Shown: positions 19,419 to 48,017 of the stretch, piece by piece
Layout: each line of letters begins with the position of its first letter
Position numbering within the stretch: the stretch's first letter is position 1
Source of the DNA: a virus
DNA: 64,000 nt
Virus record (IMG/VR): IMGVR_UViG_3300035436_000036
Direction: 5' to 3' (one strand)
Position numbers and translations under genes: made by a program
The notes under the pieces: generated by a model
Database searches by the model: none
Seen by the model: the letters and a program-made list of their open reading frames with translations, nothing else
Told to the model about the DNA's origin: nothing

Positions 19419-19427
19419 GGAATTGTA

Positions 19428-28016: not shown

Positions 28017-28021
28017 TATAC

Positions 28022-28096: not shown

Positions 28097-28097
28097 T

Positions 28098-31597: not shown

Positions 31598-31609
31598 AGG
31601 AAGTATATT

Positions 31610-32407
31610 ATGAATCGTATTGCAAAAGCTGCCGTCCTCGTTGGTCTGATGGCCACTGCTTCGGCTTGTACTCGTATCGAAACTGGTGAAGTTGGTGTTC
31701 GTCGTTCGTTCGACAAGACCATTGAAACTACAGAGCTGATGCCTGGATCTGTTAACCAGACTATGTTTGGTGATGTTATGACCTTCCCAACGAAGGACGT
31801 TCAGGTTGACGTATCGGACTTGACCCCTTTGGCGTCAGACAATTCGACAGTCGCTGACTTCGATATGGCTGTCATCTACTCGATCAATCCTGGTTCGGTT
31901 GCCGAACTGTATATCGAGAAGAACCGTGGCTTCCATGCCGAGACCGAAGAAGGTGATACTCTGTTGATGTATAACTACATTCGTCAGCTTGGTCGTAACG
32001 CTGCCTACAAGGTTGCACGTAAGTACGAGTCGTTGAAGATGGCTGACAACCGTGCAGAGATCGAACAGCTCGTTCGTCAAGAGATTGTCAACCAACTTGC
32101 TTCTGAGAAGCTTGATGGATCGATTGCAATCTCGCAGGTTCTGGTTCGTCAGATCAAGCCTGCAGCGAACATTGTAGCCTCGGCCAACCAGCTGGTGCAA
32201 GCGCAGAATGCTGAAAAGCAGAAGCAAGTAGAAGTTCGTACAGCGAAGTTGGAAGCAGAACGTATTGCTGCTCTTAACGCCAACGCTGGTGCAACGAAGT
32301 ACATGGAAGCAACTGCTCTCGTGACTATCGCAGAAGCTGTTAAGGAAGGCAAGGTCTCGACGATCATCGTTCCTTACGACTTCAAGGGAATTGTCAACGT
32401 AAAATAA
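31610..32407 (+). CDS. SPFH/band-7 (prohibitin/HflK-like) lipoprotein
   Basis: Lipobox ...TASAC; IETGEVGVRRSF SPFH start; Ala/Glu/Gln coiled-coil tail. Confidence 0.65.
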   Translation: MNRIAKAAVLVGLMATASACTRIETGEVGVRRSFDKTIETTELMPGSVNQTMFGDVMTFPTKDVQVDVSDLTPLASDNSTVADFDMAVIYSINPGSVAELYIEKNRGFHAETEEGDTLLMYNYIRQLGRNAAYKVARKYESLKMADNRAEIEQLVRQEIVNQLASEKLDGSIAISQVLVRQIKPAANIVASANQLVQAQNAEKQKQVEVRTAKLEAERIAALNANAGATKYMEATALVTIAEAVKEGKVSTIIVPYDFKGIVNVK

Positions 32408-32447: not shown

Positions 32448-32523
32448 GGACTCGTAGCTCAATTGGGAGAGCACCGCACTGTCACTGCGGAGGTAGTGGG
32501 ATCGAAACCCATCGAGTTCGCCA
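32448..32523 (+). tRNA. tRNA-Asp (GTC)
   Basis: Cloverleaf by eye. Confidence 0.7.
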
Positions 32524-32529
32524 GTTTGT

Positions 32530-32604
32530 GTCGGTGTGATGTTAATGGTAGCATGACGGTCTCCAAAACCGTTCGTCAAGGTTCGAATCCTTGCACCGAT
32601 GCCA
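32530..32604 (+). tRNA. tRNA-Trp (CCA)
   Basis: Cloverleaf by eye. Confidence 0.65.
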
Positions 32605-32629
32605 GACTTGTTCTTTCTCATTGTTGTTC

Positions 32630-32705
32630 GCGTCTGTAGCTCAGTTGGCAGAGCACTCCCCTGATAAGGGAGAGGTCGCAGGGTCAGGACCTGCCAGACG
32701 CACCA
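32630..32705 (+). tRNA. tRNA-Ile (GAT)
   Basis: Cloverleaf by eye; atypical T-loop GTCAGGA. Confidence 0.6.
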
Positions 32706-32761
32706 TTATGGGGTTGCTACCTAATAAGCACGCGAGGGGCCACGGTTAGCTCCTCAACATT

Positions 32762-32851
32762 GGAAGCGTGTCAGAGTGGTCGATTGATCTGGTCTTGAAA
32801 ACCAGCGTAGGCGCGAGTCTACCGTGGGTTCGAATCCCACCGCTTCCTCCA
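32762..32851 (+). tRNA. tRNA-Ser (TGA), type II
   Basis: Long variable arm, T-loop TTCGAAT. Confidence 0.7.
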
Positions 32852-32852
32852 T

Positions 32853-32927
32853 GCGGACGTAGCTCAGTGGTAGAGCTTCTCGTTGCCAACGAGAAGGTCG
32901 TGGGTTCGAATCCCATCGTCCGCTCCA
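32853..32927 (+). tRNA. tRNA-Gly (GCC)
   Basis: Cloverleaf by eye. Confidence 0.7.
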
Positions 32928-32929
32928 AT

Positions 32930-33004
32930 GGCCCGGTCGTCTAATGGCTAGGACACCGCTCTTTCACAGCGGAGAAGAGGGATCGAAACCCTTTCGGGCT
33001 ACCA
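32930..33004 (+). tRNA. tRNA-Glu (TTC)
   Basis: Cloverleaf by eye. Confidence 0.65.
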
Positions 33005-33010
33005 GATTTA

Positions 33011-33098
33011 GGAACGTGGGCAGGACGGTAATGCAACGCACTGCTAATGCGTACAACCTGTAATGGGTTGACAGGGTTCGACTCCCTGACGTTCCGCC
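33011..33098 (+). tRNA. tRNA-Ser (GCT), type II
   Basis: Long variable arm, T-loop TTCGACT. Confidence 0.7.
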
Positions 33099-33269
33099 AA
33101 GTTTATGGAGTCGTGAACACGGTAATGGTCGATCGCAGCGTACAGGGGTGTTCGGGGGCGATTGGCAACTCCGCCAAGATGAGGGAAACGCTAGGGCAAT
33201 GTCAGACGGTGCCTGCGTAGCGGGTGTCGTGAGGTGCTGGGTAACCGGCGGGGTCTGACACGAGTTTAT
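33099..33269 (+). ncRNA. Unassigned structured RNA segment inside tRNA operon (possible stable small RNA like T4 species 1/2 RNAs, or degenerate tRNAs)
   Basis: ~170 nt between tRNA-Ser and tRNA-His; GTCAGAC...GTCTGAC inverted repeat; both halves start with AGTTTATGG like tRNA leaders; no convincing cloverleaf. Confidence 0.3.
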
Positions 33270-33345
33270 GGTGGTCGAGGTGTTAATGGATACATGCTGG
33301 ATTGTGAATCCGGAGTTGCGGGCTCGATACCCGTCGATCACCCCA
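33270..33345 (+). tRNA. tRNA-His (GTG) with G-1
   Basis: Extra 5' G paired to discriminator C; T-loop CTCGATA. Confidence 0.65.
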
Positions 33346-33346
33346 T

Positions 33347-33422
33347 GGGGATATAGTCCAACGGCAGAGACAGGGCACTTAAAATGCCTCCAGCGTGAGT
33401 TCGAATCTCACTATCCCTACCA
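33347..33422 (+). tRNA. tRNA-like, anticodon TAA, with short (type I) variable arm
   Basis: Good acceptor/T arms (GTGAG TTCGAAT CTCAC), anticodon loop CTTAAAA; UAA normally belongs to type II tRNA-Leu. Confidence 0.5.
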
Positions 33423-33531
33423 GAATTTAGTAGACAGTGGGGCCTTCAGAAATGATTGCTACTAATAGCTCACCTTAATGGTCGGTACACCACGGTAAGG
33501 AGCAACCCACCAAACTTTTTTAAAATAACTG

Positions 33532-33570
33532 TTGCCTTTTTCGAAAATATGTCCTATAAGGATATATAAG
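33532..33570 (+). promoter_or_regulatory. Early promoter cassette copy (TTGCCT variant)
   Basis: ACTGTTGCCTTTTTCGAAAATATGTCCTATAAGGATATATAAG. Confidence 0.5.
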
Positions 33571-33591
33571 ATGAAGAAAAAGGAATTGGTT

Positions 33592-33795
33592 ATGGAAGTT
33601 TTTGTTTTGATGGGTGCGATGGATCACGATGCACATTACGTTCTTGGTGTTTATGCTTCTGAACAAGAAGCTGTAGATGCCTTGGGTGTTTACCTTCGTG
33701 ACCTTGATGAATCTTGGCATGATCGTTATTATGTTGATCGCCGTGTGCTCGGTGCACATGCGGAATACGATTCCGATCCTTTTCGACATCTGTAA
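33592..33795 (+). CDS. Hypothetical protein (67 aa) between tRNA clusters
   Basis: ATG after AAAAAGGAATTGGTT leader (same pattern as 30583 gene). Confidence 0.4.
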   Translation: MEVFVLMGAMDHDAHYVLGVYASEQEAVDALGVYLRDLDESWHDRYYVDRRVLGAHAEYDSDPFRHL

Positions 33796-33802
33796 GTTTA
33801 AT

Positions 33803-33878
33803 GGACGATTAGCTCAGTCGGTAGAGCGCGGGACTCTTAATCCTTAGGTCATAGGTTCGAATCCTATATCGTCTACCA
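33803..33878 (+). tRNA. tRNA-Lys (CTT)
   Basis: Cloverleaf by eye. Confidence 0.65.
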
Positions 33879-34093
33879 AGTTCTATGTTGGGTATCACAT
33901 AGGTGTGTCCTGAGGGAGTCATGACCCAAGGGAGAATGGAGAAAATCTCATATAGGATGCATAATGCATAACCATCTTATGATTATGAGAGGATGCGATA
34001 ATCCCCGCCCGACGCCAAATTATCCGTACCATTTTATAGGAGGTTGTATATGTCACTGCGGGAAGCAAGAAGCTAGGTAAAAATTTTAAAAAG

Positions 34094-34357
34094 ATGATTA
34101 CTCTGTATGAGTATTTCGGTAAAGAGTGTGGTGGTCTAGATTGGAGCGATAGTGCTCTCTATGATCTATACGTATTCGAGTCTACTGGTAAAGGTAGCAT
34201 AAAGCCGAATAACGGATATGCATATGGCAAACACACTATAGATATAACAATCTCTATGTGGAAAGAGGACTTAGATAAGACCCTCTGGCTACATGAATTA
34301 TATCAAGATCCTAACCTACCAGATTGGTGGTTGGATAAAGTTTTTAAGGGTCGGTAA
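34094..34357 (+). CDS. Hypothetical protein (87 aa)
   Basis: ORF between tRNAs; W-rich C-terminus. Confidence 0.4.
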   Translation: MITLYEYFGKECGGLDWSDSALYDLYVFESTGKGSIKPNNGYAYGKHTIDITISMWKEDLDKTLWLHELYQDPNLPDWWLDKVFKGR

Positions 34358-34432
34358 AGCCGGTGGCTCCGGCAGTCAGACTGTAAATCTGATCCGTTCG
34401 CGGGGGAGGATCGATACCTCACTGACCCACCA
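34348..34432 (+). tRNA. tRNA-Tyr (GTA), type II
   Basis: Anticodon stem TCAGA/TCTGA, loop CTGTAAA, long variable arm; 5' end overlaps stop of upstream ORF. Confidence 0.6.
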
Positions 34433-34440
34433 AGTTTTAA

Positions 34441-34516
34441 TGCCCTTTGGTGTAATTGGCAACACGTCTGATTTTGATTCAGAAGAGTCCAGGTTCGAGC
34501 CCTGGGAGGGCATCCA
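34441..34516 (+). tRNA. tRNA-Gln (TTG)
   Basis: Cloverleaf by eye. Confidence 0.7.
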
Positions 34517-34525
34517 AAAATAAAT

Positions 34526-34558
34526 GTTGACTTATATCTAAAAATGAGATATATAATA
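34526..34558 (+). promoter_or_regulatory. Promoter internal to tRNA cluster 3 (TTGACT ... TATATAAT)
   Basis: Upstream of tRNA-Pro. Confidence 0.5.
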
Positions 34559-34567
34559 TACTAGTAA

Positions 34568-34643
34568 CGGGAAGTAGCTCAGGTGGGAGAGCGCGTGGTT
34601 TGGGACCACGAGGTCGCAGGTTCGAGCCCTGTCTTCCCGACCA
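34568..34643 (+). tRNA. tRNA-Pro (TGG)
   Basis: Cloverleaf by eye. Confidence 0.7.
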
Positions 34644-34647
34644 TTTT

Positions 34648-34723
<76 letters not shown>

Positions 34724-34730
34724 GAATAAA

Positions 34731-34804
34731 GCGGGCTTGGCGTAGAGATAACGTACCTGGCTTCCACCCAGGGGTCAAGGGTTTGATTCCCTTAGTCCGC
34801 ACCA
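34731..34804 (+). tRNA. tRNA-Gly (TCC)
   Basis: Cloverleaf by eye. Confidence 0.7.
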
Positions 34805-34810
34805 GAATAC

Positions 34811-34885
34811 GGCACAGTAGCTCAGTGGTAGAGCGACGGTCTCATACGCCGTCAGCCGGTGGTTCGAATCCATCCTGTGTCACCA
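34811..34885 (+). tRNA. tRNA-Met/Ile2 (CAT), second copy
   Basis: Cloverleaf by eye. Confidence 0.7.
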
Positions 34886-35033
34886 TTTAGGAATGTGAAT
34901 ATGAGAAGCGAGTCTGCAGAATGTGTGATGTATGTACCCGACACTCCTTTAAACAGGGCTGCGTTTACAGACGAAACGGTTTTGGCAGAGATATATAAAG
35001 TTTCGAATATTAAAATTGTGTTTAAAGATAATG

Positions 35034-35108
35034 GGGGATTAGCTCAGTTGGGAGAGCGATTGCTTTGCAAGCAATAGGTCAACGGTTCGATCCCGTTATC
35101 CTCCACCA
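35034..35108 (+). tRNA. tRNA-Ala (TGC)
   Basis: Cloverleaf by eye; G3-U70 present (GGGGGAT...ATCCTCC). Confidence 0.7.
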
Positions 35109-35397
35109 AGTTTTGTAGCGCCTAAGGCATAGCCCGAAGGATAACCAAAGGTTCACCGTATTGGGGGCTCGCTACAAAAAAATATAGACCACCTCGGCTG
35201 AACCCGTGAAGTGATAAAGACATTGTTGCAACATTGTTTTTATCTGGGAAGATTGCAACGTCCGGAAGTAAGCAATCAAGGCACACTGTAGGTGGTCACT
35301 CACATTGACTCCGACCTCTGGTTTTAAGTCCCGACCTGAAATGACAGGCGGTAACATATGTGTCCTAGGAAACGCATTTGTTTGGGAGTTTTTATTT

Positions 35398-35473
35398 GCC
35401 TTTGTAGCTCAGTTGGTAGAGCAGTGGATTGAAGATCCACGTGTCGGGGGTTCGACTCCCTCCAAAGGCACCA
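35398..35473 (+). tRNA. tRNA-Phe (GAA)
   Basis: Cloverleaf by eye. Confidence 0.7.
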
Positions 35474-35592
35474 CAAGTTTGGGACTAAGCGGTGTGAATA
35501 GGGAACCCGCTGAATATGGACTGCTAGTAAAACTGTTAAAACTCACCTATGAGAAGCAAGGCATAAGATCCCAAAACATTATGCTCCAATGG

Positions 35593-35675
35593 TGGAATGG
35601 TAGACACGCTAGTCTTAGGAACTAGTGCCTAGTGCGTGGGGGTTCGAGTCCCTCTTGGAGTACCAAGTTTAATGC
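35593..35675 (+). tRNA. tRNA-Leu (TAG), type II
   Basis: Long variable arm, discriminator A. Confidence 0.7.
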
Positions 35676-35683
35676 CGGATTAG

Positions 35684-35758
35684 CTCAGTGGTAGAGCGCC
35701 TCGTTTACACCGAGGATGTCGGGAGTTCGACCCTCTCATCCGGTACCACGCCCTCGTA
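35684..35758 (+). tRNA. tRNA-Val (TAC)
   Basis: Cloverleaf by eye. Confidence 0.7.
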
Positions 35759-35759
35759 G

Positions 35760-35836
35760 CTCAACTGGATAGAGCTCTTGATTACGAATCAAAAGGTTGC
35801 AGGCTCGAATCCTGCCGAGGGCACCAATTAACTGTT
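35760..35836 (+). tRNA. tRNA-Arg (ACG)
   Basis: Cloverleaf by eye. Confidence 0.65.
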
Positions 35837-35844
35837 GACATTAA

Positions 35845-35873
35845 CAGCTATAAGTACTATAAAGAATTATGAA
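35845..35873 (+). promoter_or_regulatory. Promoter (TTGACA N17 TATAAA) upstream of tRNA-Asn
   Basis: sigma70-like spacing. Confidence 0.5.
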
Positions 35874-35879
35874 GTTTAT

Positions 35880-35954
35880 TCCCCAGTAGCTCAGTGGTAG
35901 AGCAGGTGACTGTTAATCACCTGGCCGGTGGTTCGAACCCATCCTGGGGAGCCA
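35880..35954 (+). tRNA. tRNA-Asn (GTT)
   Basis: Cloverleaf by eye. Confidence 0.7.
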
Positions 35955-36381
35955 ATTTCAGTTAAGCAGTACCGTCTGCTGAACCAACGTATATACCCTA
36001 ACAGATTATACGTTGTAAACAAAACGGATGAAGGAAGTTCCTGTGGCGACCAAGCGATTGGGGGAAGATAGGAACGTAAAGAGCGAAATTACCGACTGTA
36101 GCGAGTCGACACCTCAGTAGCCTTCTTATTACTAACACCGCCGCCCGTATGGTGTATAACAATCCCGGGCCTAGTTTCGATATCGGCCTCGACGGAGGCT
36201 GTAAGAAGTGTGACTGAATAATCCCCTTGTCAGTGGGGATAAAGTAGACTCGGGGATTGGTCTCCCGCTCAACCGGCAAACGAGTCGTAGGCTGAGATTA
36301 CAGACTGTAATTGACTGGGCCTTGGAGGTATAACTGAATCCTCCCACTTCGCTTTTATAGATATTATGTTAGGAGATTATT
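35955..36381 (+). ncRNA. ~425-nt non-coding, comparatively GC-rich region downstream of tRNA array (candidate structured RNA)
   Basis: No credible ORF on either strand (only a 93-aa antisense ORF of poor composition); multiple local inverted repeats (e.g. CAGTGGGGATAAAG...GGGATTGGTCTCCC, CACCGCCGCCCGTATGGTG). Confidence 0.25.
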
Positions 36382-36972
36382 ATGGTAGAAACTGTTTCAA
36401 TTAAACGTCATTGGGATAAGTACGATGACAATACTCACGAACTGCCTGAGGTTGTTCCTAGTGTAGTATTCAAGACTCGTGTCCGCGATGACTCAATCGA
36501 AGGCCCCAATCCTTACCGCTGGGAAGACAAGACTAGCTTTGACTACTTCGGTGGCAAGCGTGTCATCCTCTTCTCACTCCCTGGCGCATTCACCCCCACA
36601 TGTTCCACATACCAGCTTCCGGATTTCGAGAATAGCTACGAAGCATTCAAGAGCTTTGGTATCGATGAGATCTATTGTGTCTCTGTCAACGATGCCTTTG
36701 TGATGAACTGCTGGGCTCAACAGCAAGGTGTAGAGAACGTCAAGATGATTCCAGATGGTTCTGGCAAATTCACTCGCAAGATGCAGATGAATGTCTACAA
36801 AGACAACCTTGGGTTCGGTGAGCGCTCATGGCGTTATGCATGCCTTATCGAGAATGGTAAGATCCTCAAGTGGTTCATTGAACCAGGTATGGAAGACAAT
36901 TGCGAAGAGGATCCATACGGCCGTACGGATCCAGCAAAGATCCTCGAGTATGTCGAGGCGTTCTATGGCTGA
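36382..36972 (+). CDS. Peroxiredoxin (Prx5-like, 1-Cys/atypical 2-Cys)
   Basis: PGAFTPTCS peroxidatic-Cys motif. Confidence 0.85.
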   Translation: MVETVSIKRHWDKYDDNTHELPEVVPSVVFKTRVRDDSIEGPNPYRWEDKTSFDYFGGKRVILFSLPGAFTPTCSTYQLPDFENSYEAFKSFGIDEIYCVSVNDAFVMNCWAQQQGVENVKMIPDGSGKFTRKMQMNVYKDNLGFGERSWRYACLIENGKILKWFIEPGMEDNCEEDPYGRTDPAKILEYVEAFYG

Positions 36973-37346: not shown

Positions 37347-37458
37347 TCTGCTATCATACAATGTTCCCAGTAGCAACATTACTGTAACATATGGGCCTAC
37401 AACGAGTAGGCAAGGGTATACGATCCCAACTGACTTCAGTTTCGATCAGTATTAATTA

Positions 37459-37490
37459 GAGGGGGTGGCTTCGGTCACCCCCTTTTTTTA
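37459..37490 (+). terminator. Rho-independent terminator
   Basis: GGGGGTGGCTTCGGTCACCCCC + TTTTTTT. Confidence 0.8.
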
Positions 37491-37496
37491 TAAATA
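37489..37496 (+). promoter_or_regulatory. T4-type late promoter TATAAATA driving the 37.5-43.1 kb module
   Basis: Exact TATAAATA 6 nt upstream of ATG 37502, immediately after terminator. Confidence 0.5.
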
Positions 37497-37501: not shown

Positions 37502-37789
37502 ATGAACTATGACGTTGTTTTCAAACTAATTGCTGATGTCGGGTTCCCCATCGCAGCTGCACTGCTCGCAGGAGTATTCGTATACTTCGTCATCAATTAC
37601 ATACTTGAAAGTGTCGTGAAAGCCATTAAAGGCATGCAGGGTATTATTATGGGACTCGATAACAGAGTCAAGACAATGAACCATGATATCATCCGTGTTG
37701 ATGCCGTAGTAAGTTCCGCTCTAGGTCTTAAACCAGATCTAGATCGCATCGCTCGAGCTGACGGGAAGAACGATGCGAGAAAAGACTAA
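37502..37789 (+). CDS. Small N-terminal-TM protein, paralog A (holin-like?)
   Basis: Tandem paralog pair (VFKLIADVGFPIAAALLAGVFVYFV vs IAELIKQYGFPIVAAVGMGYFVWFI). Confidence 0.5.
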   Translation: MNYDVVFKLIADVGFPIAAALLAGVFVYFVINYILESVVKAIKGMQGIIMGLDNRVKTMNHDIIRVDAVVSSALGLKPDLDRIARADGKNDARKD

Positions 37790-38052
37790 TGGATGTAAAT
37801 GTAATTGCTGAACTTATAAAGCAATATGGGTTTCCGATCGTCGCCGCTGTGGGGATGGGATACTTCGTATGGTTTATCTACAAGTTTGTTACTGATAAGT
37901 TAATGCCGCTGATAGGTGAGACCAATGTCATTCTGATTGCTCTCATTGATCGCGTTCGCATGCTGGATAACGATCTAATAAGATTGAACCAGAAGGTGAA
38001 TGTCGTACTGCAGATAAAGGAGGATCACAGTGACCATAAATCTAAAGATTGA
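37789..38052 (+). CDS. Small N-terminal-TM protein, paralog B
   Basis: Tandem duplicate of previous gene; TAATG overlap. Confidence 0.5.
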   Translation: MDVNVIAELIKQYGFPIVAAVGMGYFVWFIYKFVTDKLMPLIGETNVILIALIDRVRMLDNDLIRLNQKVNVVLQIKEDHSDHKSKD

Positions 38053-38126
38053 GATCCTCAAAGTATTCTCGCTTGAACTTAGCCTTTCTTCTGATAAAGA
38101 AATCAAACTAAAGAAAGACAAACAAG

Positions 38127-38564
38127 ATGAGAAAGAGTCTGCTCCTGCTACTCCTAGTAAGCAGCCCGCTCCAAGCAAGTGAGATAGTATTTGGATTTAA
38201 GAACCCTTCGTTCTCTGGCAACAATGCCGGAGCGCAATGGCTGACTATTGAGAATCAAGAGACTACTCGTAAAAAGGCTATAGCGGATAAGATCGAGGCC
38301 GAACTCAAGGCTCAGGCTCTTGAAGAGAAGAACTCGATCCTCAATCGCTTTATGAACAACCTACAGTCTCGTATCTACTCGCAGCTTGCTCAACAGCTGA
38401 CAAACAATCTGTTTGGTGAGATGGGTGGCGAAGAGGGTGAGTTCGGTCTTGAAGGCAACTCTATCAAGTACAAGAAGACTGACACAGAGATCACACTATC
38501 AATTACTGATGCGGCTGGTAACACTACCGAGATTATAATTCCGACGAGTGGCTTCAAATGGTAA
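38127..38564 (+). CDS. csgF: CsgF-like curli assembly protein
   Basis: Signal peptide then FGFKNPSFSGNNAGAQWL (E. coli CsgF FQFRNPNFGGNPNNGAFLL) and ITLSITDAAGNTTEIII (LQLNVTDRKTGQTSTIQV). Confidence 0.75.
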   Translation: MRKSLLLLLLVSSPLQASEIVFGFKNPSFSGNNAGAQWLTIENQETTRKKAIADKIEAELKAQALEEKNSILNRFMNNLQSRIYSQLAQQLTNNLFGEMGGEEGEFGLEGNSIKYKKTDTEITLSITDAAGNTTEIIIPTSGFKW

Positions 38565-39349
38565 GGAATTGGTTTCTCTTACTAATACCGCTGTTGCTGG
38601 GCGGGTGCATGTCAATGGGTTCTGGTGTGCTTGACATGCAGGATCGACCTGAACTTAGCCGCACACTGACAAAGGAATTGTATACTCTGAGCCCACCTAA
38701 GCAACAGGCTGTAGTTGCGGTGTATGACTTTCCGGACCTTACAGGTCAAAGAAGAGATAAGGATGGCATTGCCAGCATCTCGACTGCAGTGACTCAGGGT
38801 GGCACAGCGCTTCTAATCTCTGCACTGACAGATGCAGGTGGTGGTTCGTGGTTCAGAGTTGTTGAACGCAATCGCGTTGACGATCTTGCAAAGGAACGTC
38901 AGATTGTTAGACAGACTCGTGAAGAGTATATTGGAGAAGGAGCAAATAAGCTAGAGCCAATGCTCTTTGCTGGTTTGATTATCCAGGGTGGAATCATTGG
39001 CTATGATAGCAACATCCAGACTGGCGGGGCAGGCGCAAGGTATCTGGGCATTGGTGGAACAACAGTGTATCGTAAGGACCAAGTGGTAATTGCGTTGCGT
39101 GGTGTCAATACAAACACAGGGGAAGTGATCCTCAACGTACAGGTTTCCAAGACCGTGCTTTCGGTTGGCAGAGACCTTTCGGTTTTTAAGTTTGTTGATG
39201 TAGGAACAAAGCTGGTAGAAGCGGAAGCCGGCATGACTGAGAATGAAGCTAACACAATGGCAGTTAAGATGGCCATAGAGGAAGCAGTATTACAGTTAAT
39301 CAAACAAGGTATCGATAAGGGATACTTTAGCTATAGGGAAGAAGGATGA
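38558..39349 (+). CDS. csgG: CsgG-like curli secretion channel lipoprotein
   Basis: Lipobox LLGGC; AVVAVYDFPDLTGQ; IIGYDSNIQTGGAGARYLGIGGTTVYRKDQVVIALRGVNTNTGEVIL strongly similar to E. coli CsgG IIGYESNVKSGGVGARYFGIGADTQYQLDQIAVNLRVVNVSTGEIL. Confidence 0.9.
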   Translation: MVRNWFLLLIPLLLGGCMSMGSGVLDMQDRPELSRTLTKELYTLSPPKQQAVVAVYDFPDLTGQRRDKDGIASISTAVTQGGTALLISALTDAGGGSWFRVVERNRVDDLAKERQIVRQTREEYIGEGANKLEPMLFAGLIIQGGIIGYDSNIQTGGAGARYLGIGGTTVYRKDQVVIALRGVNTNTGEVILNVQVSKTVLSVGRDLSVFKFVDVGTKLVEAEAGMTENEANTMAVKMAIEEAVLQLIKQGIDKGYFSYREEG

Positions 39350-40044
39350 TGAAAAAGGCACTAGCACTTTTCATTATGTCTCTGATGACGAGTTCGTTAG
39401 CTTATGCACAGTCGACGACTAACTCGATTTTTATCGACCAAGTTGGTAACGGTAGTACAATTACAGTTACCCAGAAGGGTCAGAACAATAGAATTGGTTC
39501 TGAACAAAACCGTGTTGTGATTGAAGGCAACAACCAGACAATCACTTCTACGCAAGAAGGTAATAATAACCTTATTCAGGGTTCTATTACACAGGGCGAT
39601 AACGTCAGCATCGATTCGACCGTGACAGGTGACAACAATACAGTTACCTATGACATGGGTGATGCAGCAAGCGTTGCAGGTTCAACTAAGACACTCGCGG
39701 TGACAGGCGATTCGAACAACCTGACATTCAACCAGGGCACAGCAGCTTCGGCTACAGGGGCTACACAGAACATCACGTTCACCGGTGATACCAATACCTA
39801 TACCTCGACAATCAATACGGATGACGTAGTCAATGATATGACTATTGCTGGTGATGGTAACACGATCACAATGGTGCAAGATGGCACAGCTGGTAAGAAT
39901 GTTGAAATGGTGCTTACAGGCAGCACAAACAATGTTACTGTAAATCAAAAGAGCACAAACAATGTTGATACGATCAAGATCAATAGCACAAGCACTGGTA
40001 GCACTCTTGTTATTAATCAGTGCAACGCCGGCGGCCCTTGCTAA
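39346..40044 (+). CDS. Secreted curlin-repeat (CsgA/CsgB-like) protein candidate
   Basis: Signal peptide; ~20-residue imperfect repeats with Q-x-G-x-N-N / N-x-[VI]-T-x-x-Q cores, Gln/Asn/Thr/Gly-rich; encoded directly after csgF-csgG. Confidence 0.5.
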   Translation: MMKKALALFIMSLMTSSLAYAQSTTNSIFIDQVGNGSTITVTQKGQNNRIGSEQNRVVIEGNNQTITSTQEGNNNLIQGSITQGDNVSIDSTVTGDNNTVTYDMGDAASVAGSTKTLAVTGDSNNLTFNQGTAASATGATQNITFTGDTNTYTSTINTDDVVNDMTIAGDGNTITMVQDGTAGKNVEMVLTGSTNNVTVNQKSTNNVDTIKINSTSTGSTLVINQCNAGGPC

Positions 40045-41053
40045 TATTGGCAACGTAACGCAGGCGCGTGGTAATAGCGAAGTCGTGAAGAAAGCCACTA
40101 AGGTTCCTACACGACTTCAGCTACCTATTGCTAAGTTAGATAGAGTACAGACTGGAAACGGTAGAGTCGAGATCAAGTTTATCGACGACTCTACCGTCAG
40201 GGTAACAGAACATTCGAAGCTCGTGATCGACGACTTCGTCTATAGTGGTAAGCCATCCACTTCAAGAATGGCTCTCAAGTTTGCCTCTGGCACTGCTAGA
40301 TTCGCTACCGGTCAGTCTGGTAAGATGAACAAAAGCAACATCAATCTCAGAACACCCACTGCTACAATTGGTGTTCGTGGAACAGACTTCGCAGCAACCG
40401 TAGACGACTTTGGCAAAAGCCTTATCATTCTCCTACCCGAGCCAGATGGATCCGTGGGAGAAATCACTGTGTCTAATGCTGCGGGGTTCGTTATTCTCAC
40501 GAAAGCCTTCCAGGCCACCATCGTGTCGACAGCAGATAGTAGACCATCTCGTCCCGTGATCCTCAACCTGACACTGGATCAGATTGATAACATGCTGATT
40601 GTATCCCCAGCAGAAGAGGTTGATATGGGCGAAGATGCTGGCGAGACAAGATCAAATATCTTGGACTTATCAGAGCTCGATGTAGACTTCCTGGCTAAAG
40701 ATGATCTGAAAGAAGATCAGCTGGCGAGTTCGGATCTAGACATCAATGCAATCGATACCAACTTCCTTGGAGAAGACTTTCTCGATGATAGTCTTGCTGG
40801 AGGTGATTGTATCACACGTGAAGGTACGAAGCTATGCGGCACAATATTCGGTCTTGATAGCGTAACACAAATCACAACGATTCTATCTGGAGATTCAATC
40901 CGTCTCGTAAGAACTCTCGGCACTACTGTAGATGTCAGGTTCAAGAAGGACGAAAACAAAACTTTATACATAGATAGTAGTGGCAAGTCATTTTTGATCG
41001 AAATAAACGATCCAGCTGGGGGTACAATAATCAATGTCAAACAAAGTGACTAA
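39962..41053 (+). CDS. Secreted FecR-domain protein with acidic C-terminal region
   Basis: Clear signal peptide ALVALLLLISATPAALA; FecR-type core (TVRVTEHSKLVID ... TPTATIGVRGTDF); start overlaps previous gene by 83 nt. Confidence 0.6.
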   Translation: MLIRSRSIAQALVALLLLISATPAALANIGNVTQARGNSEVVKKATKVPTRLQLPIAKLDRVQTGNGRVEIKFIDDSTVRVTEHSKLVIDDFVYSGKPSTSRMALKFASGTARFATGQSGKMNKSNINLRTPTATIGVRGTDFAATVDDFGKSLIILLPEPDGSVGEITVSNAAGFVILTKAFQATIVSTADSRPSRPVILNLTLDQIDNMLIVSPAEEVDMGEDAGETRSNILDLSELDVDFLAKDDLKEDQLASSDLDINAIDTNFLGEDFLDDSLAGGDCITREGTKLCGTIFGLDSVTQITTILSGDSIRLVRTLGTTVDVRFKKDENKTLYIDSSGKSFLIEINDPAGGTIINVKQSD

Positions 41054-43091
41054 GGTCTTATTGTCCCCATGGCTGGCTCTCCTGACATTTGCTTTGCTAT
41101 TCGCAGTCAAGGTTCAGGATCCGTTCCTAGTAGAATCTGCTAGGCTTAAGTTCTATGATTACATTATGATCGACAAACCAGTCGAATCAAAAGACATAGT
41201 CGTTGTAAACATAGGGGAGAAAGCAATTGAAAAATATGGCCAGTGGCCTTTCCCGAGGGAAGTACATGCTAAGATTATTAGCGACCTTTATAGGGCAAAC
41301 GCTGGTCTCGTTGGTAGCACTATACTTATGCCTGAGCCTGATCGTATGGGGACTGATAGAGTTCTTGTCGATGTCCTGAAACAGGCTCCGGTTGTTCTCA
41401 GTCAGACTGTGAGCGACTCTTGTTCACGGGCAGGTGCGACAATTCGGAAGACAGGCGTTGCCGTAATCGGCGATGGAGAACCAACTGAATTTCTTCCTCA
41501 ATATCCGTGCGTTCTAAGTAATATCGCACCTCTTCAAGAAGCCGCAGCCGGTGTTGGGATAACATCAACCCTACCTGAGGCTGATGGGGTCGTGAGGCGA
41601 GTTCCTCTTCTAGCTCAATCTGAAAACGAATACTACCCCGCATTTGCTCTAGAGCTTCTACGTGTAGCTGCTGGAGATCCTTCGTATCAAGCGAAGATAA
41701 ATCAGACTGGTGTTGAAGCATTACGGATTCCTCAATTCGATACTATTAAGACGGATGAATATGGTCGCATATTTATTAACCCAAATTATAAGTTCAAAGA
41801 GATTGAACTGGGTGTTCCTACAACTGTAGACTTGAATCAAAAGATTGTAGTTTTAGGTGTAACTGCTGCCGGCATTCAGAATCCACTAGCAACTCCTCAA
41901 GGAGCTCAGTATCCTCAGAATGTACAAGCAAGCATCCTTCAGACACTACTAGACGGTGACTCTGTATCGATTCCACTTTGGGCTTCTTCTTTGGATTTGG
42001 CACTGCTATTATTCCTTACTATTGGTATCGTTGTCCTATCAAAGGTGAGATACTCTGTTGTATGGATCATGATATTGATCGGTGGGTATGTTTACCTACC
42101 TGTCTATTTATTCGCCAGTCAAAAGCTGCTACTTGACATTTCTTTCAATGTCTTCGCTGTTCTTATAATTTACCTACACATCTATACAGTAAAGTTCATC
42201 TCTGAATTCCTACAGAAGCAGCAGATCAAGAAGCAGTTCGGAACGTATCTCTCACCTGACCTGGTCGCAAAGCTCCAACGCAATCCTGAGCTTCTGGCTC
42301 TCGGTGGCGAAGAGCAAGAGCTGTCAATCATGTTCACAGACGTTCGTGGATTCACAACGATCTCAGAGCACTATGGTAAGGACGTTCAAGGTCTGACAAA
42401 GATCATGAACCGCTACATGACGGCTATGACAAAGGCGATCCTCGAGAACAACGGAACGCTGGACAAGTACATTGGTGACGCTCAGATGGCATTCTGGAAC
42501 GCACCTGTCGCAAACGAAAAACATGCTCTGGATGCTGTAAGAACATCCTTTGAGATGATGAAAGCCCTGGAGACATTTAATGCAGAAATTAAAGAAGAAG
42601 GCGTTCCAGCTTTCGGTATGGGTCTTGGTATTAACACTGCCACTGTGGTGGTTGGCAATATGGGTAGCGATCAGCGCTTTGATTATACTTGCCTGGGTGA
42701 CGGGGTTAATCTGGCTGCTCGTCTCGAAGGTCAGTCCAAGCCTTATGGCGTCAAACTCGTCCTCGGGTCTCGCACAGCGGACCTGGTTAGGGATGTATAC
42801 CAAGTAGTCGAGCTTGATCTAATAGCTGTTAAAGGTAAGACCGAACCGGCACGCATCTATACCGTGGTGGAGAACTTCGACACATACTCGCAGGTGATGC
42901 ATGATACGTTCCTGGATCTGTATCGCAAGGGCGATTGGGCCAGAGCGATAAAGCAGGCTCAAGAACGCAAGGCACAGGCCTGGGGCGGTGAGCTTGAGGC
43001 ATACTATGATATGATGATCGAGCGCAGCGCAGATATGAAGGCTGCTGGTGTAAAGAATTTTGATGGAATCTACAGAGCGACTTCCAAATAA
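41034..43091 (+). CDS. CHASE2-sensor class III adenylate/guanylate cyclase
   Basis: N-terminal TM + periplasmic CHASE2 region (DIVVVNIGEKAIEKYGQWPFPREVHAKII), three TM helices, cyclase domain with FTDVRGFTTISE ... KYIGDAQMAFWNAP ... GDGVNLAARLE. Confidence 0.85.
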   Translation: MSNKVTKVLLSPWLALLTFALLFAVKVQDPFLVESARLKFYDYIMIDKPVESKDIVVVNIGEKAIEKYGQWPFPREVHAKIISDLYRANAGLVGSTILMPEPDRMGTDRVLVDVLKQAPVVLSQTVSDSCSRAGATIRKTGVAVIGDGEPTEFLPQYPCVLSNIAPLQEAAAGVGITSTLPEADGVVRRVPLLAQSENEYYPAFALELLRVAAGDPSYQAKINQTGVEALRIPQFDTIKTDEYGRIFINPNYKFKEIELGVPTTVDLNQKIVVLGVTAAGIQNPLATPQGAQYPQNVQASILQTLLDGDSVSIPLWASSLDLALLLFLTIGIVVLSKVRYSVVWIMILIGGYVYLPVYLFASQKLLLDISFNVFAVLIIYLHIYTVKFISEFLQKQQIKKQFGTYLSPDLVAKLQRNPELLALGGEEQELSIMFTDVRGFTTISEHYGKDVQGLTKIMNRYMTAMTKAILENNGTLDKYIGDAQMAFWNAPVANEKHALDAVRTSFEMMKALETFNAEIKEEGVPAFGMGLGINTATVVVGNMGSDQRFDYTCLGDGVNLAARLEGQSKPYGVKLVLGSRTADLVRDVYQVVELDLIAVKGKTEPARIYTVVENFDTYSQVMHDTFLDLYRKGDWARAIKQAQERKAQAWGGELEAYYDMMIERSADMKAAGVKNFDGIYRATSK

Positions 43092-43095: not shown

Positions 43096-43132
43096 TTGAC
43101 CTTTTCGTGAAAATAACGGATAAGGGTATATC
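43096..43132 (+). promoter_or_regulatory. Early promoter cassette copy
   Basis: GCTGTTGACCTTTTCGTGAAAATAACGGATAAGGGTATATC + CAAGAGTGAAAAGGAA leader. Confidence 0.6.
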
Positions 43133-43153: not shown

Positions 43154-43504
43154 ATGATTAAGGTTTATCAAATTCAACTTACCGATGCAGAGATCGATCT
43201 TGTCAACTCTGGTGGGGATTATACTCCTCGCATCAAAGCCTACTTCGACCGTTCGTTTGAATCGTCATTCAAAGCGGAGAACTTCCAATACTACACTCAT
43301 GTTGCTAACGTCGATGTAGATGGCTTCGAGCAGGCTTTCGAAGCTACGAACCTCTGGGAAGAGAGCTCGTTGTTTGATCGTGTTGAGAAGCTCGGTCGTT
43401 GCTCGTCGATGTCGGTTGGTGACATCGTTGCAGATCATGATGGTAAGCTCTATCGTTGCGCTTCCTTTGGCTTCACGCAGCTTGAAAATTATCAAAAAGA
43501 TTAA
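43154..43504 (+). CDS. Hypothetical protein (116 aa)
   Basis: ORF after early promoter. Confidence 0.5.
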   Translation: MIKVYQIQLTDAEIDLVNSGGDYTPRIKAYFDRSFESSFKAENFQYYTHVANVDVDGFEQAFEATNLWEESSLFDRVEKLGRCSSMSVGDIVADHDGKLYRCASFGFTQLENYQKD

Positions 43505-45744: not shown

Positions 45745-45798
45745 CCCCGTCACGCCTAATGGGTGACACAACTAAACTCGCTTAATAGGAGAATATAC

Positions 45799-46320
45799 AT
45801 GAAAAGTTTTTATGACGCACGCGCATTTAAGAATCTCGATGGTTTCTTTGTCGGATTCGATGACATTGCTAAAAAGCTAACCGAAGCTCAAAAGGCAGCG
45901 ACAGATGCAGTCAAATATCCCCCATACAATCTGAAGAAGATCGACGAGAATCGATACACTATCGAACTCGCGGTAGCCGGCTTTGCTAAGCAAGATCTTG
46001 AAATCGAGATTGCGGATGATAAGCTAATCATCAAGGGCAACACCACATCTGGTGAACCCTCAGAACAAGATTCTGCTGGCGAATGGACTTGGCCGCAAGT
46101 TCTTCATCACGGGCTTGCAATGCGCCCATTCACTCGCACCTTTACTCTTTCGGATAACGTAGAGATTCGTGGTGCTTCACTTCTGAACGGCATTCTAAAG
46201 ATTGCTCTGGAAGCTATTATTCCTGAGCATAAGAAGCCTAAGAAAGTTGAGATTCAAGATGCCGAGGAGGAGTATCCTTCCCAGGCTGCTGAATTCTTGG
46301 CAGAAGGTAAAACCAAGTAA
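45799..46320 (+). CDS. Small heat-shock protein (Hsp20/IbpA-like)
   Basis: PPYNLKKIDENRYTIELAVAGFAKQDLEIEIADDKLIIKG vs E. coli IbpA [40 protein letters not shown]; start set at ATG with RBS TAGGAGAA. Confidence 0.8.
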   Translation: MKSFYDARAFKNLDGFFVGFDDIAKKLTEAQKAATDAVKYPPYNLKKIDENRYTIELAVAGFAKQDLEIEIADDKLIIKGNTTSGEPSEQDSAGEWTWPQVLHHGLAMRPFTRTFTLSDNVEIRGASLLNGILKIALEAIIPEHKKPKKVEIQDAEEEYPSQAAEFLAEGKTK

Positions 46321-46322: not shown

Positions 46323-46356
46323 AGAAGGGGGCCTTTTGAGCCCCCTTCCCATTTTA
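46323..46356. terminator. Bidirectional rho-independent terminator between convergent sHSP and endolysin genes
   Basis: GAAGGGGGCCTTTTGAGCCCCCTTC with T-runs on both strands. Confidence 0.75.
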
Positions 46357-47538
46357 TCCCCAGTTGGCGTACTGTTTGGTCTTCTTAAGCCTGTCATCCA
46401 GGCCGTGAGTTCCACCATTAACACGCTTTGTGATCTGAGTGATGATTGCATCCGTTACACCCTTGTCTGCAATCGCTAGCAGACCATTCTTACGGAAGAA
46501 CCACAATGCAGACTCGAAAGCCAACTCCCCAACCACAAGATCAGGATTCGTTAAAACGTCAGGGCGTCCAATGTCAGCGGCAAAGGCTGTATAGTTCGCT
46601 TTCCCGGTCAGTTGGATCGGGCCTCGACCACGATACTTCCAGCCATCTCCAGAGGCTTCTGGTCCGTTCCCCATCCGATTAGCATACACTTTGTTTGCAA
46701 TCTTCTCTGGCTTGCGAGCATAACCTGCTGTCGAAGCAATCGTTGGGAAGTACTTCTTGAAGATCCCATTGAGACCCTTGTCCGAGTAGTTAAGGTTTTC
46801 TGAAAAGACTTTGAAGCCACCCGACTCGTGAGCACACTGACCAAAGAAGTGAGCTGCTTGAGTGTTTGATAGCTTGAAGAAGTCACGAGCTGCCTTATAA
46901 GTACCAGGACCCCACTTACCATCGGCAGTGATGCCACACTTAGTTTGGAGAGCCGCTAATGGACCAAGACCCGCTGCAACTGGAGCTGCCTTTGGAGCAG
47001 CCGCTGACGGCTTCGGAGCAGCTTGACCAGCTACTTGAGGAGCTCCTGCTTCGCGAGTCGTTGATGGATCGAAATCCTTCACAGTAGTGTATACAGTGCC
47101 ACCAGCCTTCGACTTAGAAGCGATCATGCGAACCTTACGGTTGCCACCTTCCTTCTTGATCGAAGCGTGAACCCAACCAGAGTTCTTATCACCAGCAGTG
47201 TAGAACTCGAGGATGACTTGGTCGAACTCTAGATTGTCACCAATCCAGTCTGCAACTGTCTTGTTATCAACACCCTTGACTTCGAAGTCAATTGCCTGAC
47301 CATTAACGTGCTGTGAGGTCTTTGAACCACCAACAGCTCTGTTAACAGCAGGAGCGCGGTAAGAAGAGTTGATCGTTACCGGACCAAACTTTGCACGGAC
47401 TGGCTCGAGGATCTTCTCGCAGCAGTAGCGCATGTTCTCAATGTGCTCTGGGGTTGGAGTGTTCGAAAGTCCCAGTTTCTTGGCAGTAGGAGATACGGTC
47501 ATCTCGCTAAGTTTAAAGTGTTCTGTTAGTTGTGTCAT
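46354..47538 (-). CDS. Multidomain endolysin: M15 peptidase + peptidoglycan-binding domain + GH19 muramidase/chitinase-like domain
   Basis: N-term FKLSEMTVSPTAKKLGLSN...SQHVNGQAIDF (M15); middle CGITADGKWGPGTYKA; C-term GQCAHESGGF...YRGRGPIQLTGKANY (GH19). Confidence 0.85.
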   Translation of the reverse strand: MTQLTEHFKLSEMTVSPTAKKLGLSNTPTPEHIENMRYCCEKILEPVRAKFGPVTINSSYRAPAVNRAVGGSKTSQHVNGQAIDFEVKGVDNKTVADWIGDNLEFDQVILEFYTAGDKNSGWVHASIKKEGGNRKVRMIASKSKAGGTVYTTVKDFDPSTTREAGAPQVAGQAAPKPSAAAPKAAPVAAGLGPLAALQTKCGITADGKWGPGTYKAARDFFKLSNTQAAHFFGQCAHESGGFKVFSENLNYSDKGLNGIFKKYFPTIASTAGYARKPEKIANKVYANRMGNGPEASGDGWKYRGRGPIQLTGKANYTAFAADIGRPDVLTNPDLVVGELAFESALWFFRKNGLLAIADKGVTDAIITQITKRVNGGTHGLDDRLKKTKQYANWG

Positions 47539-47548: not shown

Positions 47549-47998
47549 TTAGAATGGTCCATGGTCTTCGTCTGAGTCAAGATACTTGTCGACAGCTGCC
47601 ATCATTTTGATTTCGTTGTCTGTTTCGATTGACTCGGCTTGTGCGTTGATTACGTGAGCTTCTGCAAGAGCCTTATGATCGGTCTTGCCGAGCTCTTGAG
47701 TCTTTACGTTTGGATCAAGCTCAGAAACTTTCATTCCCATCATCGTAGCGAAGGCTCCGACAAAGGCACCGATGATCATTGAGAACGCTGGGCCGATGAT
47801 CTTGAAGATTTCGTTATTATCGATTAGCTCGTTTGGCATAAACATACCAATGAGGAAGATGAATACAACTGCTAGCATGATAGACGACAGCACAAGTGTG
47901 ACCATCTTCATGATAGAGAGTTGGATCTTACCCTTCTCGAGTTCGAGTTGCTCCATCGATGTGATTGGTGGGGTAGATAAAAAAGATAGTAAGGACAT
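47549..47998 (-). CDS. Putative holin / lysis membrane protein
   Basis: Immediately upstream of endolysin on same strand; 2-3 TM segments; RBS GAGGT. Confidence 0.4.
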   Translation of the reverse strand: MSLLSFLSTPPITSMEQLELEKGKIQLSIMKMVTLVLSSIMLAVVFIFLIGMFMPNELIDNNEIFKIIGPAFSMIIGAFVGAFATMMGMKVSELDPNVKTQELGKTDHKALAEAHVINAQAESIETDNEIKMMAAVDKYLDSDEDHGPF

Positions 47999-48017
47999 AC
48001 AATACCTCAATTAGTGG

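Follow-up and report, generated by a model that had tools for sequence, protein, structure and literature searches.

In the 64,000-nt stretch of viral DNA held under IMG/VR record IMGVR_UViG_3300035436_000036 (hereafter, the window), the gene at positions 41034-43091 on the plus strand encodes an intact receptor-type enzyme, in which a CHASE2 sensor predicted to be periplasmic is joined to a class IIIb adenylate cyclase domain. Judging from the catalytic residues, it is very likely that this phage gene encodes an active adenylate cyclase. The gene is the terminal member of a conserved CsgF-CsgG-curlin-FecR cassette and not a stand-alone moron, since it closes a tightly packed run of seven genes at 37502-43091 (+). 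Taken as a whole, the observations are best explained by a generator of cyclic AMP (cAMP) that is driven by an envelope signal and acts late in infection, a reading that we consider moderately probable.

In the Pfam comparison, the CHASE2 domain (PF05226) was matched at residues 21-330 with an E value of 9.8e-40 (137 bits against a cut-off of 26.3; profile positions 8-253 of 257), and the Guanylate_cyc domain (PF00211) was matched at residues 428-604 with an E value of 2.4e-18 (66.8 bits against a cut-off of 21.9). Hydropathy places one hydrophobic segment near the N-terminus (approximately residues 8-26) and three within residues 317-386, and the pattern of charged residues agrees with an N-in topology. 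One N-terminal transmembrane (TM) helix, three C-terminal TM helices and a cytoplasmic output domain are the arrangement of CHASE2 sensor proteins. An AlphaFold2 model of the monomer, built from a diverse alignment of 132 sequences, was obtained with high confidence (mean predicted local distance difference test score, pLDDT, of 93.2; predicted template modelling score of 0.77), and an earlier AlphaFold model from a shallow alignment of 120 close homologues, with a pLDDT of 57, was discarded. The sensor part of the model consists of a helix at residues 12-28, an alpha/beta domain at residues 50-307 and helices at residues 317-335, 341-363 and 370-405, the third of these central TM helices running on into a long cytoplasmic helix. 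The output part consists of the cyclase fold (residues 423-612) and a four-helix C-terminal extension (residues 617-671). The gene and its parts are located as follows.

41034-43091 (+): CHASE2-sensor class IIIb adenylate cyclase, 685 amino acids (aa), ATG start, a single open reading frame (ORF) in the ORF listing
41112-41978 (+): periplasmic CHASE2 domain (approximately aa 27-315), from Pfam, hydropathy and the AlphaFold2 alpha/beta domain with pLDDT above 90
41982-42197 (+): three TM helices (aa 317-388) taking the chain back to the cytoplasm, from hydropathy and AlphaFold2
42306-42869 (+): class III cyclase catalytic domain (aa 425-612), from HMMER, Foldseek and conservation
42870-43088 (+): helical C-terminal extension (aa 613-685, ending DGIYRATSK), conserved, four helices with pLDDT 94-98 in the AlphaFold2 model

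The CHASE2 domain sits between TM1 (residues 8-28) and TM2. A preliminary description of the window had proposed that a phage encodes a complete class III cyclase, its sensor of the TM-CHASE2-3TM layout, and had pointed to the motif FTDVRGFT in its catalytic domain; the Pfam matches, the hydropathy profile, the AlphaFold2 model and the T4-like flanks bear out the former, and the latter is found at residues 434-441. When the model was compared with the Protein Data Bank by Foldseek, the best match was CyaB of Pseudomonas aeruginosa (3r5g; TM-score of 0.85, root-mean-square deviation of 2.5 Å); the matches were to cyclase domains only, and no solved CHASE2 structure was among them. CyaB and CyaC of Spirulina platensis (1wc0) share the catalytic fold of the phage enzyme (TM-scores of 0.80-0.85, deviations of approximately 2.5 Å) and an identical set of catalytic residues, including the Lys/Thr adenine pair. 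The input sides are different, for the sensor of CyaB is a MASE2 domain and CyaC is soluble, both unlike the CHASE2 sensor of the phage cyclase. Several class IIIb enzymes are stimulated by bicarbonate or CO2.

By aligning the catalytic domain with CyaB (3r5g), CyaC (1wc0/1wc1) and Cya2 (2w01) in HMMER, which set the register, all seven catalytic residues were located: D436, K478, D482, R548, T552, N559 and R563. From class III cyclase structures, we take D436 and D482 to be the metal-binding Asp pair, R548 the phosphate-binding Arg, N559 and R563 the transition-state pair, and K478 and T552 the pair that specifies the base. The Asp pair of CyaC and CyaB falls in the columns of D436 and D482, which are invariant in 282 homologues. 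The columns of K478 and T552 hold Lys and Thr in the class IIIb enzymes CyaB and CyaC, and Glu and Gly in the guanylate cyclase Cya2. The cyclase domain, the Asp pair, the Lys/Thr pair, the Asn/Arg pair and the phosphate Arg, by which class IIIb is recognized, are therefore all present, and the Lys/Thr pair points to a class IIIb adenylate cyclase and not to a guanylate cyclase or a pseudo-enzyme. The preliminary description had left the choice between ATP and GTP to an inspection of the specificity residues, which proved to be of the ATP type, and had named the absence of the Asp pair or of Asn/Arg as the mark of a pseudo-cyclase; D436, D482, N559 and R563 are all present and conserved. On these grounds the product is predicted to be ATP-derived cAMP, and cGMP is unlikely.

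None of 120 close homologues lacks any of the seven catalytic residues, and among 82 viral loci they are kept in 79-82; the exceptions are truncated contigs and the orthologues of two cultured phages, Methylophilales phage Melnitz (T552D and N559S) and Pelagibacter phage HTVC008M (T552S). Pairwise ratios of nonsynonymous to synonymous substitution (dN/dS) are 0.13-0.20 for the whole gene, 0.12-0.21 for CHASE2 and 0.05-0.16 for the catalytic domain, which is the most strongly constrained part; the cyclase is under purifying selection. It could be argued from the Asn-to-Ser change at the transition-state position of Melnitz that the gene encodes an inactive pseudo-cyclase kept as a sensor or scaffold, or else a guanylate cyclase. 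However, the catalytic residues are near-invariant, constraint is strongest exactly in the catalytic domain, and K478 occupies the position of the Glu in Cya2, so that this alternative is highly improbable. The C-terminal extension is present in bacterial homologues, whose matches reach residue 685. The Melnitz cyclase lies at 5932-7983 of locus L001, and the HTVC008M cyclase at 5944-7779 of locus L002, where the helical extension of approximately 70 aa is missing. In view of the residue changes and the lost extension, the cultured Melnitz and HTVC008M cyclases may differ in activity or regulation from those of the large uncultured clade.

Profile similarity also links the catalytic domain to the PycC cyclases of Pycsar systems, with which it shares the class III fold; the best match to the PADLOC PycC models has an E value of 1.3e-24, and the ORF after the cyclase (43154-43504) gives a weak PycTM match (E 0.0016). 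An immune cyclase of Pycsar type, which would serve superinfection exclusion or counter-defence with a pyrimidine or another non-canonical cyclic nucleotide as its product, nevertheless has very little probability, because the PycC models describe a generic class III fold, characterized adenylate cyclases score higher (CyaB, 116-120 bits), the Lys/Thr pair is an adenine signature, and the phage enzyme has a membrane sensor architecture and no adjacent effector that binds cyclic nucleotides, neither the TM nor the TIR type by which Pycsar is recognized. The PycTM candidate itself (116 aa, 16 bits) was rejected as a chance match; it has no TM segment, and in relatives it often stands upstream of the cassette or is absent.

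The six genes that precede the cyclase in the cassette are the following.

37502-37789 (+): small single-pass membrane protein 1 (95 aa), phrog_18771, E 1.5e-30
37789-38052 (+): small single-pass membrane protein 2 (87 aa), phrog_18771, E 9e-31, with a weak N-terminal match to a holin family, E 3e-4
38127-38564 (+): CsgF homologue (type VIII secretion), Pfam CsgF, E 5.6e-23, with a signal peptide and the N-terminus MRKSLLLLLLVSSPLQA
38558-39349 (+): CsgG homologue (outer-membrane lipoprotein channel), Pfam CsgG, E 8.4e-49, lipobox LGGC
39346-40044 (+): secreted Asn-, Gln-, Thr- and Gly-rich protein bearing approximately eight curlin-like repeats, from composition and repeats
39962-41053 (+): secreted FecR-domain protein of 363 aa, Pfam FecR, E 7.3e-12, its sole Pfam match

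The junctions between successive genes measure -1, +74, -7, -4, -83 and -20 nt, the last of these being the overlap of the fecR stop with the cyclase start. The two small proteins are paralogues (33% identity, E 2e-15) and orthologous to the pair of small ORFs ahead of csgF in HTVC008M and Melnitz, where the first member of the pair shares 51% identity with protein 1. The genes that Wittmers et al. 2022 (PMC9599517) call 'HK' are probably their equivalents. That study described a viral type VIII secretion system (T8SS) cluster that consists of one or two 'HK' genes, CsgF, CsgG, CsgA/B, FecR and an adenylate cyclase, sometimes with a second CsgA/B between FecR and the adenylate cyclase, and the same order is found here in a tailed-phage genome. 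The curlin-repeat gene matches Pfam Curlin_rpt weakly (E 6e-4; 20.1 bits, just under the cut-off of 20.7), the gene at the syntenic position in Melnitz carries the annotation curlin-associated repeat protein, and its product is a candidate CsgA/B-like substrate. The FecR protein has a signal peptide, a FecR domain at residues 60-149 and an acidic segment at residues 216-300 (24 Asp or Glu in 85 residues), and it has neither an anti-sigma domain nor a TM anchor. Its start is ambiguous within 39962-40044: the longest ORF, which overlaps the curlin gene by 83 nt, gives a good signal peptide, and many FecR homologues in databases are called 14-22 residues shorter.

T4-like core genes lie on both sides of the cassette and on the same strand. 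The T4-type genes of the window include structural genes (tail sheath, tail tube, portal, prohead protease, scaffold and major head protein), genes of replication and recombination (UvsY, UvsW, gp46/47, clamp, clamp loader, DNA polymerase, UvsX and gp41 helicase), and RegA, RNase H and RNA ligase. The core genes on both sides indicate that the cyclase is truly phage-borne, in an uncultured T4-like myophage lineage. The major head protein is nearest to those of Stenotrophomonas phage DLP6 (72%), Melnitz (68%) and the Sinorhizobium phiM12 group (65%), and a near-identity DNA search against deposited phages returned no match to the window. The affinity to DLP6 and the GC content of 43-49% hint at a host group different from Pelagibacter and the marine streamlined heterotrophs. 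An origin in bacterial DNA, by host contamination, chimeric assembly or a prophage flank, might be suspected since the nearest cellular homologues of the cyclase are alphaproteobacterial. These are at most 36% identical, however; the gene is embedded among same-strand T4-like core genes in a window of uniform GC content (43-49%), and the same cassette occurs in T4-like neighbourhoods of more than 58 IMG/VR contigs and of two cultured phages. This synteny refutes a bacterial origin, to which we give virtually no probability.

The cassette is bounded by three elements that resemble transcription signals.

37458-37485 (+): intrinsic-terminator-like hairpin closing the upstream transcription unit, with a 12-bp stem, 7 G-C pairs and then a T run
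37489-37496 (+): TATAAATA, a T4-type late-promoter-like motif directly before the first cassette gene
43096-43131 (+): repeated 36-nt promoter-like element TTGACC...GGATAAGGGTATAT, directly after the cyclase stop

The motif TATAAATA has nine copies in the window against 1.27 expected, a seven-fold enrichment, at 108, 2097, 8030, 22790, 32433, 37489 and 54173 on the plus strand and at 48036 and 60899 on the minus strand. The copy at 108 stands just before the tail sheath gene, that at 8030 before the major head gene and that at 48036 before the lysis genes; another precedes the cassette. Among the 58 viral loci with at least 1200 nt of upstream sequence, approximately 22 carry the motif 609-648 nt upstream of csgF, and in the window this distance is 638 nt. 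The 36-nt intergenic element (TTGACCTTTTCGTGAAAATAACGGATAAGGGTATAT) has four copies with at most three mismatches, all on the plus strand (43096-43131, 55090-55125, 55669-55704 and 56616-56651), where none is expected. Its core has eight copies against 0.84 expected, the additional ones lying at 56173 and, with two mismatches, at 30545, 54820 and 60017. The element probably represents an early or middle promoter class of the phage; it would then start the next transcription unit and mark the downstream boundary of the cassette. Because it repeats, the peptide 'LLIYPY..FS.KGQQL' recurs in spurious minus-strand ORFs. From these motifs, from which the timing is read, 37502-43091 appears to form one late transcription unit.

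A late-promoter motif in front of the cassette would also suit a device that times lysis and progeny release, in which CsgG/CsgF acts as a gated secretin or a pinholin, as hypothesized by Buchholz et al. 2022 (PMC9004378), and the cyclase reports the state of the envelope. The two conserved single-pass membrane proteins, with their weak holin-family match (E 3e-4), could be cited in its favour, but this similarity spans only approximately 20 residues. In addition, a separate lysis module lies 3 kb downstream, with an endolysin (46354-47538, minus) and a membrane protein (47549-48010, minus) behind a TATAAATA motif of its own, and no link between cAMP and lysis is known for T4-like phages. We accordingly regard the lysis-timing role as rather unlikely.

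The second possibility on which the promoter bears is that the cyclase regulates transcription of the curli/T8SS genes of the phage through cAMP and a host factor of the CRP type, as happens upstream of csgD in enterobacteria; this was argued by Wittmers et al. 2022 (PMC9599517) and fits the strict co-location of the cyclase with T8SS genes. However, the cyclase appears to be co-transcribed with its would-be targets behind the phage late-promoter motif, no csgD is present, and the 64-kb window holds no CRP-type site (TGTGA-N6-TCACA with at most one mismatch; 0 against 3.6 expected). Such a regulator would, moreover, leave the periplasmic CHASE2 sensor with no role, and we regard it as unlikely.

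The preferred reading, an envelope-signal-driven cAMP generator, draws on the neighbourhood of related cyclases in bacteria. The 80 closest bacterial homologues of the cyclase are 30-36% identical to it and mostly alphaproteobacterial, and csgG or csgF is found within 8 kb of none of the 80, so that the fusion of T8SS and cyclase genes looks virus-specific, in agreement with PMC9599517. A FecR-domain ORF is present near 27 of the 80, and in 11 it lies directly upstream on the same strand. These bacterial neighbours range from proteins of 316-350 aa to FecR-cadherin-RTX-like proteins of 1,200-2,100 aa. In Bradyrhizobium centrosematis (locus L105, 2787-7865), the protein directly upstream of the CHASE2 cyclase has 1,692 aa, with an N-terminal FecR domain, cadherin-like and immunoglobulin repeats and a serralysin-type C-terminus, which indicates that the FecR-domain partners of CHASE2 cyclases are very different in size and probably in location.

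The closest parallel is found on pSymB of Sinorhizobium meliloti, where nsrA, which encodes a 'signal perception protein' of 1,200 aa, overlaps the start of cyaK. Pfam places a FecR domain at the N-terminus of NsrA (E 2e-15), with TPR repeats after it, and identifies CyaK as a cyclase of the CHASE2 kind. The phage FecR protein is 28% identical to the FecR domain of NsrA over 137 aa (E 5e-5), and the phage cyclase is 46% identical to CyaK over residues 398-664, which cover the catalytic and C-terminal regions. The phage cassette thus shares with NsrA-CyaK (and with CyaD1/CyaD2) a FecR-domain gene directly upstream of, and overlapping, a TM-CHASE2-3TM-cyclase gene. According to PMC7529298 and PMC13001267, the cAMP response of S. 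meliloti to free ribosomal protein uL2 needs both NsrA and CyaK, the C-terminal half of NsrA is an outer-membrane beta-barrel, and crude extracts of E. coli, S. meliloti and yeast contain the uL2 signal too. In both papers the output is cAMP. The two systems have in common an outer-membrane component that stands upstream of an inner-membrane CHASE2 adenylate cyclase. The differences are considerable, because NsrA is a 1200-aa fusion of FecR, TPR and beta-barrel, whereas the phage protein consists of FecR and the acidic tail only in its 363 aa, and the only outer-membrane channel of the phage cassette is the separate CsgG/CsgF pair.

A secreted FecR protein encoded beside a TM-CHASE2-3TM sensor is also known from a Burkholderia operon that recurs in that genus (PMC5192318). 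In that operon a histidine kinase, paired with a response regulator, forms the output, LysM is part of the FecR protein, and no T8SS is present (PMC5192318). In the window, the domain scan comprised Pfam searches of most ORFs of at least 100 aa and of several shorter ones near the cassette, and among the scanned ORFs no sigma-70_r2/r4 domain of an extracytoplasmic function sigma factor and no TonB-dependent receptor was found. With no such sigma factor or TonB transducer among the scanned ORFs, and with no anti-sigma domain or TM anchor of its own, the phage FecR protein does not belong to a FecI-FecR-FecA system. The comparison suggests that it is the counterpart of the signal-perception module of NsrA and not an iron regulator.

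Relatives of the cyclase are numerous in metagenomes, with 7,290 proteins at E values of at most 1e-20 among the scored candidates, and an exhaustive search of 50%-identity representatives gave 12,666 clusters of the wider family at E values of at most 1e-30. In IMG/VR, relatives are encoded on more than 587 stretches. The window cyclase belongs to phrog_35576 (E 2e-238) with the full-length architecture. The order csgF-csgG-curlin-fecR-cyclase is observed in every fetched viral locus with enough upstream flank, as well as in HTVC008M and Melnitz, and 58 loci hold csgF, csgG, fecR and the cyclase together. In 17 of these 58 the cassette has the 'short' form of the window. The identities of csgF, csgG, curlin and fecR to their counterparts in the window rise and fall together (rho of 0.62-0.83), a crude correlation, indicative only, that uses the window as the single reference and loci selected through the cyclase. 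It suggests that the cassette recombines as two blocks and that FecR moves with the T8SS genes. Mosaic loci were seen among L003-L082, some of which have a cyclase that is 72-75% identical to that of the window beside T8SS and FecR genes that are 37-47% identical. The pattern is reversed in L082 (cyclase 54%, csgF 79%), and in L070 it runs within the cyclase itself (CHASE2 43%, catalytic domain 85%).

Based on the results presented above, the following sequence of events may be proposed. Late in infection, the cassette would be transcribed from its T4-type late promoter; CsgG and CsgF would be installed in the outer membrane, the curlin-repeat and FecR-domain proteins would be exported to the periplasm, and the cyclase would be inserted in the inner membrane as a receptor-type protein, with CHASE2 facing the periplasm and the catalytic domain facing the cytoplasm. 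The two small inner-membrane proteins would be part of the same envelope device. A periplasmic or cell-surface cue would then act on the FecR-domain protein and through it on CHASE2, with the CsgG/CsgF channel possibly in place of the NsrA beta-barrel. The cyclase is proposed to work as a homodimer with two active sites that convert ATP to 3',5'-cAMP, and the rise of cAMP in the infected cell would reach a host cAMP receptor. The domain architecture, the catalytic and ATP-type specificity residues, the purifying selection, the operon, its synteny and the homology to nsrA-cyaK are observed. Dimerization, cAMP synthesis, late timing, the coupling of FecR to CHASE2, the kind of cue and the downstream target are what the scheme adds for the phage system, and the relay from FecR/T8SS to CHASE2, drawn by analogy with NsrA-CyaK, is a tentative step to which we give somewhat less than even weight.

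Several observations weigh against this scheme. The late timing is read from a promoter motif that lies 5 nt from the annotated ATG. No FecR ORF occurs within 8 kb in 53 of the 80 bacterial homologues, and in S. meliloti a different FecR-domain protein, SMc02177, lies at the output end of the cAMP pathway and is dispensable for signal perception (PMC5498481). The phage FecR protein has neither the TPR region nor the beta-barrel of NsrA, and it is consequently not a member of the fused-barrel type; the analogy needs CsgG/CsgF as the outer-membrane part, a role that we purely infer. An extra gene stands between fecR and the cyclase in 41 of the 58 loci (the 'long' form), to which Melnitz and HTVC008M also belong, and the identity of the FecR and T8SS proteins is uncorrelated with that of the CHASE2 or cyclase domains (rho of -0.26 to 0.20, under the limits given above). 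FecR therefore follows the T8SS genes and not the cyclase, which, together with the extra gene, is not what a tightly co-evolving FecR-CHASE2 pair would show. On the output side, the preliminary description had suggested that the cyclase could feed an effector dependent on cyclic nucleotides or manipulate host regulation. No cNMP_binding, CRP or GAF domain was detected by Pfam in the scanned ORFs, so that, in contrast to the S. meliloti system, no Clr/CRP-like receptor was found among them, and the window holds no CRP-type site. The Ser at the transition-state Asn position of the Melnitz orthologue suggests that high activity may not be essential in every lineage.

A bolder form of the proposal, to which we assign a low probability, is that the cassette is a trans-envelope sensing organelle, built by the phage, that reads the lysis or infection state of neighbouring cells as cAMP. 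Since uL2 is present in crude lysates of many cell types, it may serve as a marker of nearby cell lysis, and by analogy CsgG/CsgF, standing in for the NsrA barrel, would catch an extracellular or periplasmic protein cue, perhaps with the fibre of curlin or the FecR protein's acidic tail exposed through the channel. The FecR-domain protein would pass the cue on to the CHASE2 cyclase. If this were true, an infected cell could tune late functions such as lysis timing, aggregation or metabolism, and lytic T4-like phages would possess a protein-sensing analogue of lysis inhibition or of arbitrium-type communication.

The gene itself is not a new discovery. Its family is annotated in cultured phages: the cassette is found in HTVC008M (2013) and in Melnitz (2022), and in both the final gene bears the label adenylate/guanylate cyclase (AGE60353 in HTVC008M; gp104, QZI94833, in Melnitz; 40-41% identical to the window cyclase), and the cluster has been published (PMC9599517). 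The latter study reported affinities to Alphaproteobacteria, metatranscriptomic expression and a ubiquitous presence in ocean viromes, where the cluster was estimated to make up approximately 0.1% of the viral proteins assembled. FecR is treated there as a regulator dependent on iron, and neither CHASE2 nor the class IIIb signature nor the parallel to nsrA-cyaK is mentioned. Buchholz et al. 2022 (PMC9004378) and Zaragoza-Solas et al. 2020 discussed the 'curli operon' and did not mention the cyclase, and literature searches with phage-encoded adenylate cyclase as a phrase gave no match. The CHASE2 and class IIIb assignments, the late-promoter motif, the corrected reading of FecR and the nsrA-cyaK parallel are new here. 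The window phage shares with HTVC008M and Melnitz a T4-like myovirus genome and the gene order from the two small genes to the cyclase. It differs from the pelagiphage cluster in its lineage, with a GC content of approximately 46% and the DLP6-like major head protein, and from Melnitz and HTVC008M in having no second curlin gene between fecR and the cyclase; its cassette lies within the region of replication and nucleotide metabolism and not, as in the known phages, beside baseplate genes.

With three results, the intact CHASE2-gated adenylate cyclase, the NsrA-like FecR protein and the late-promoter motif, the widespread viral curli/T8SS cassette gains a testable model in which an envelope cue would pass through FecR/T8SS to cAMP. 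Under the cAMP model, this would be one of few cases of a lytic phage with its own receptor-type second-messenger synthase, and Melnitz and HTVC008M are culturable relatives that carry the cassette.

Other features of the window lie outside the cassette. The 24 tRNA genes, all on the plus strand, form a cluster of 3 at 27940-28175 and an array of 21 at 32448-35954, which spans most amino acids and has TATAAATA just before it at 32433. A manA RNA motif of Rfam is present at 36185-36354 (64.8 bits against a gathering threshold of 55.2), directly upstream of a peroxiredoxin/Redoxin gene at 36382-36972. Host-like auxiliary genes encode an SPFH/Band 7 protein, preceded by the gene of a small membrane protein, as well as an Hsp20 and a peptide deformylase (31421-32407, 45763-46320 and 16107-16664). 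A GIY-YIG/NUMOD3 homing-endonuclease-like ORF at 25341-25880 is inserted between the sliding clamp and clamp-loader genes, and a second NUMOD3 ORF lies at 60213-61145 on the minus strand. At 58398-59462, a 354-aa AAA/STAND-like NTPase gives weak PADLOC matches to mad8 and IetA (E values of 4e-5 to 1e-3). Finally, a phosphoribosyltransferase, a PTPS/QueD-like gene and a type I GTP cyclohydrolase FolE2 stand together at 18218-20387, and this group looks like a 7-deazaguanine (queuosine/archaeosine-type) DNA-modification pathway.

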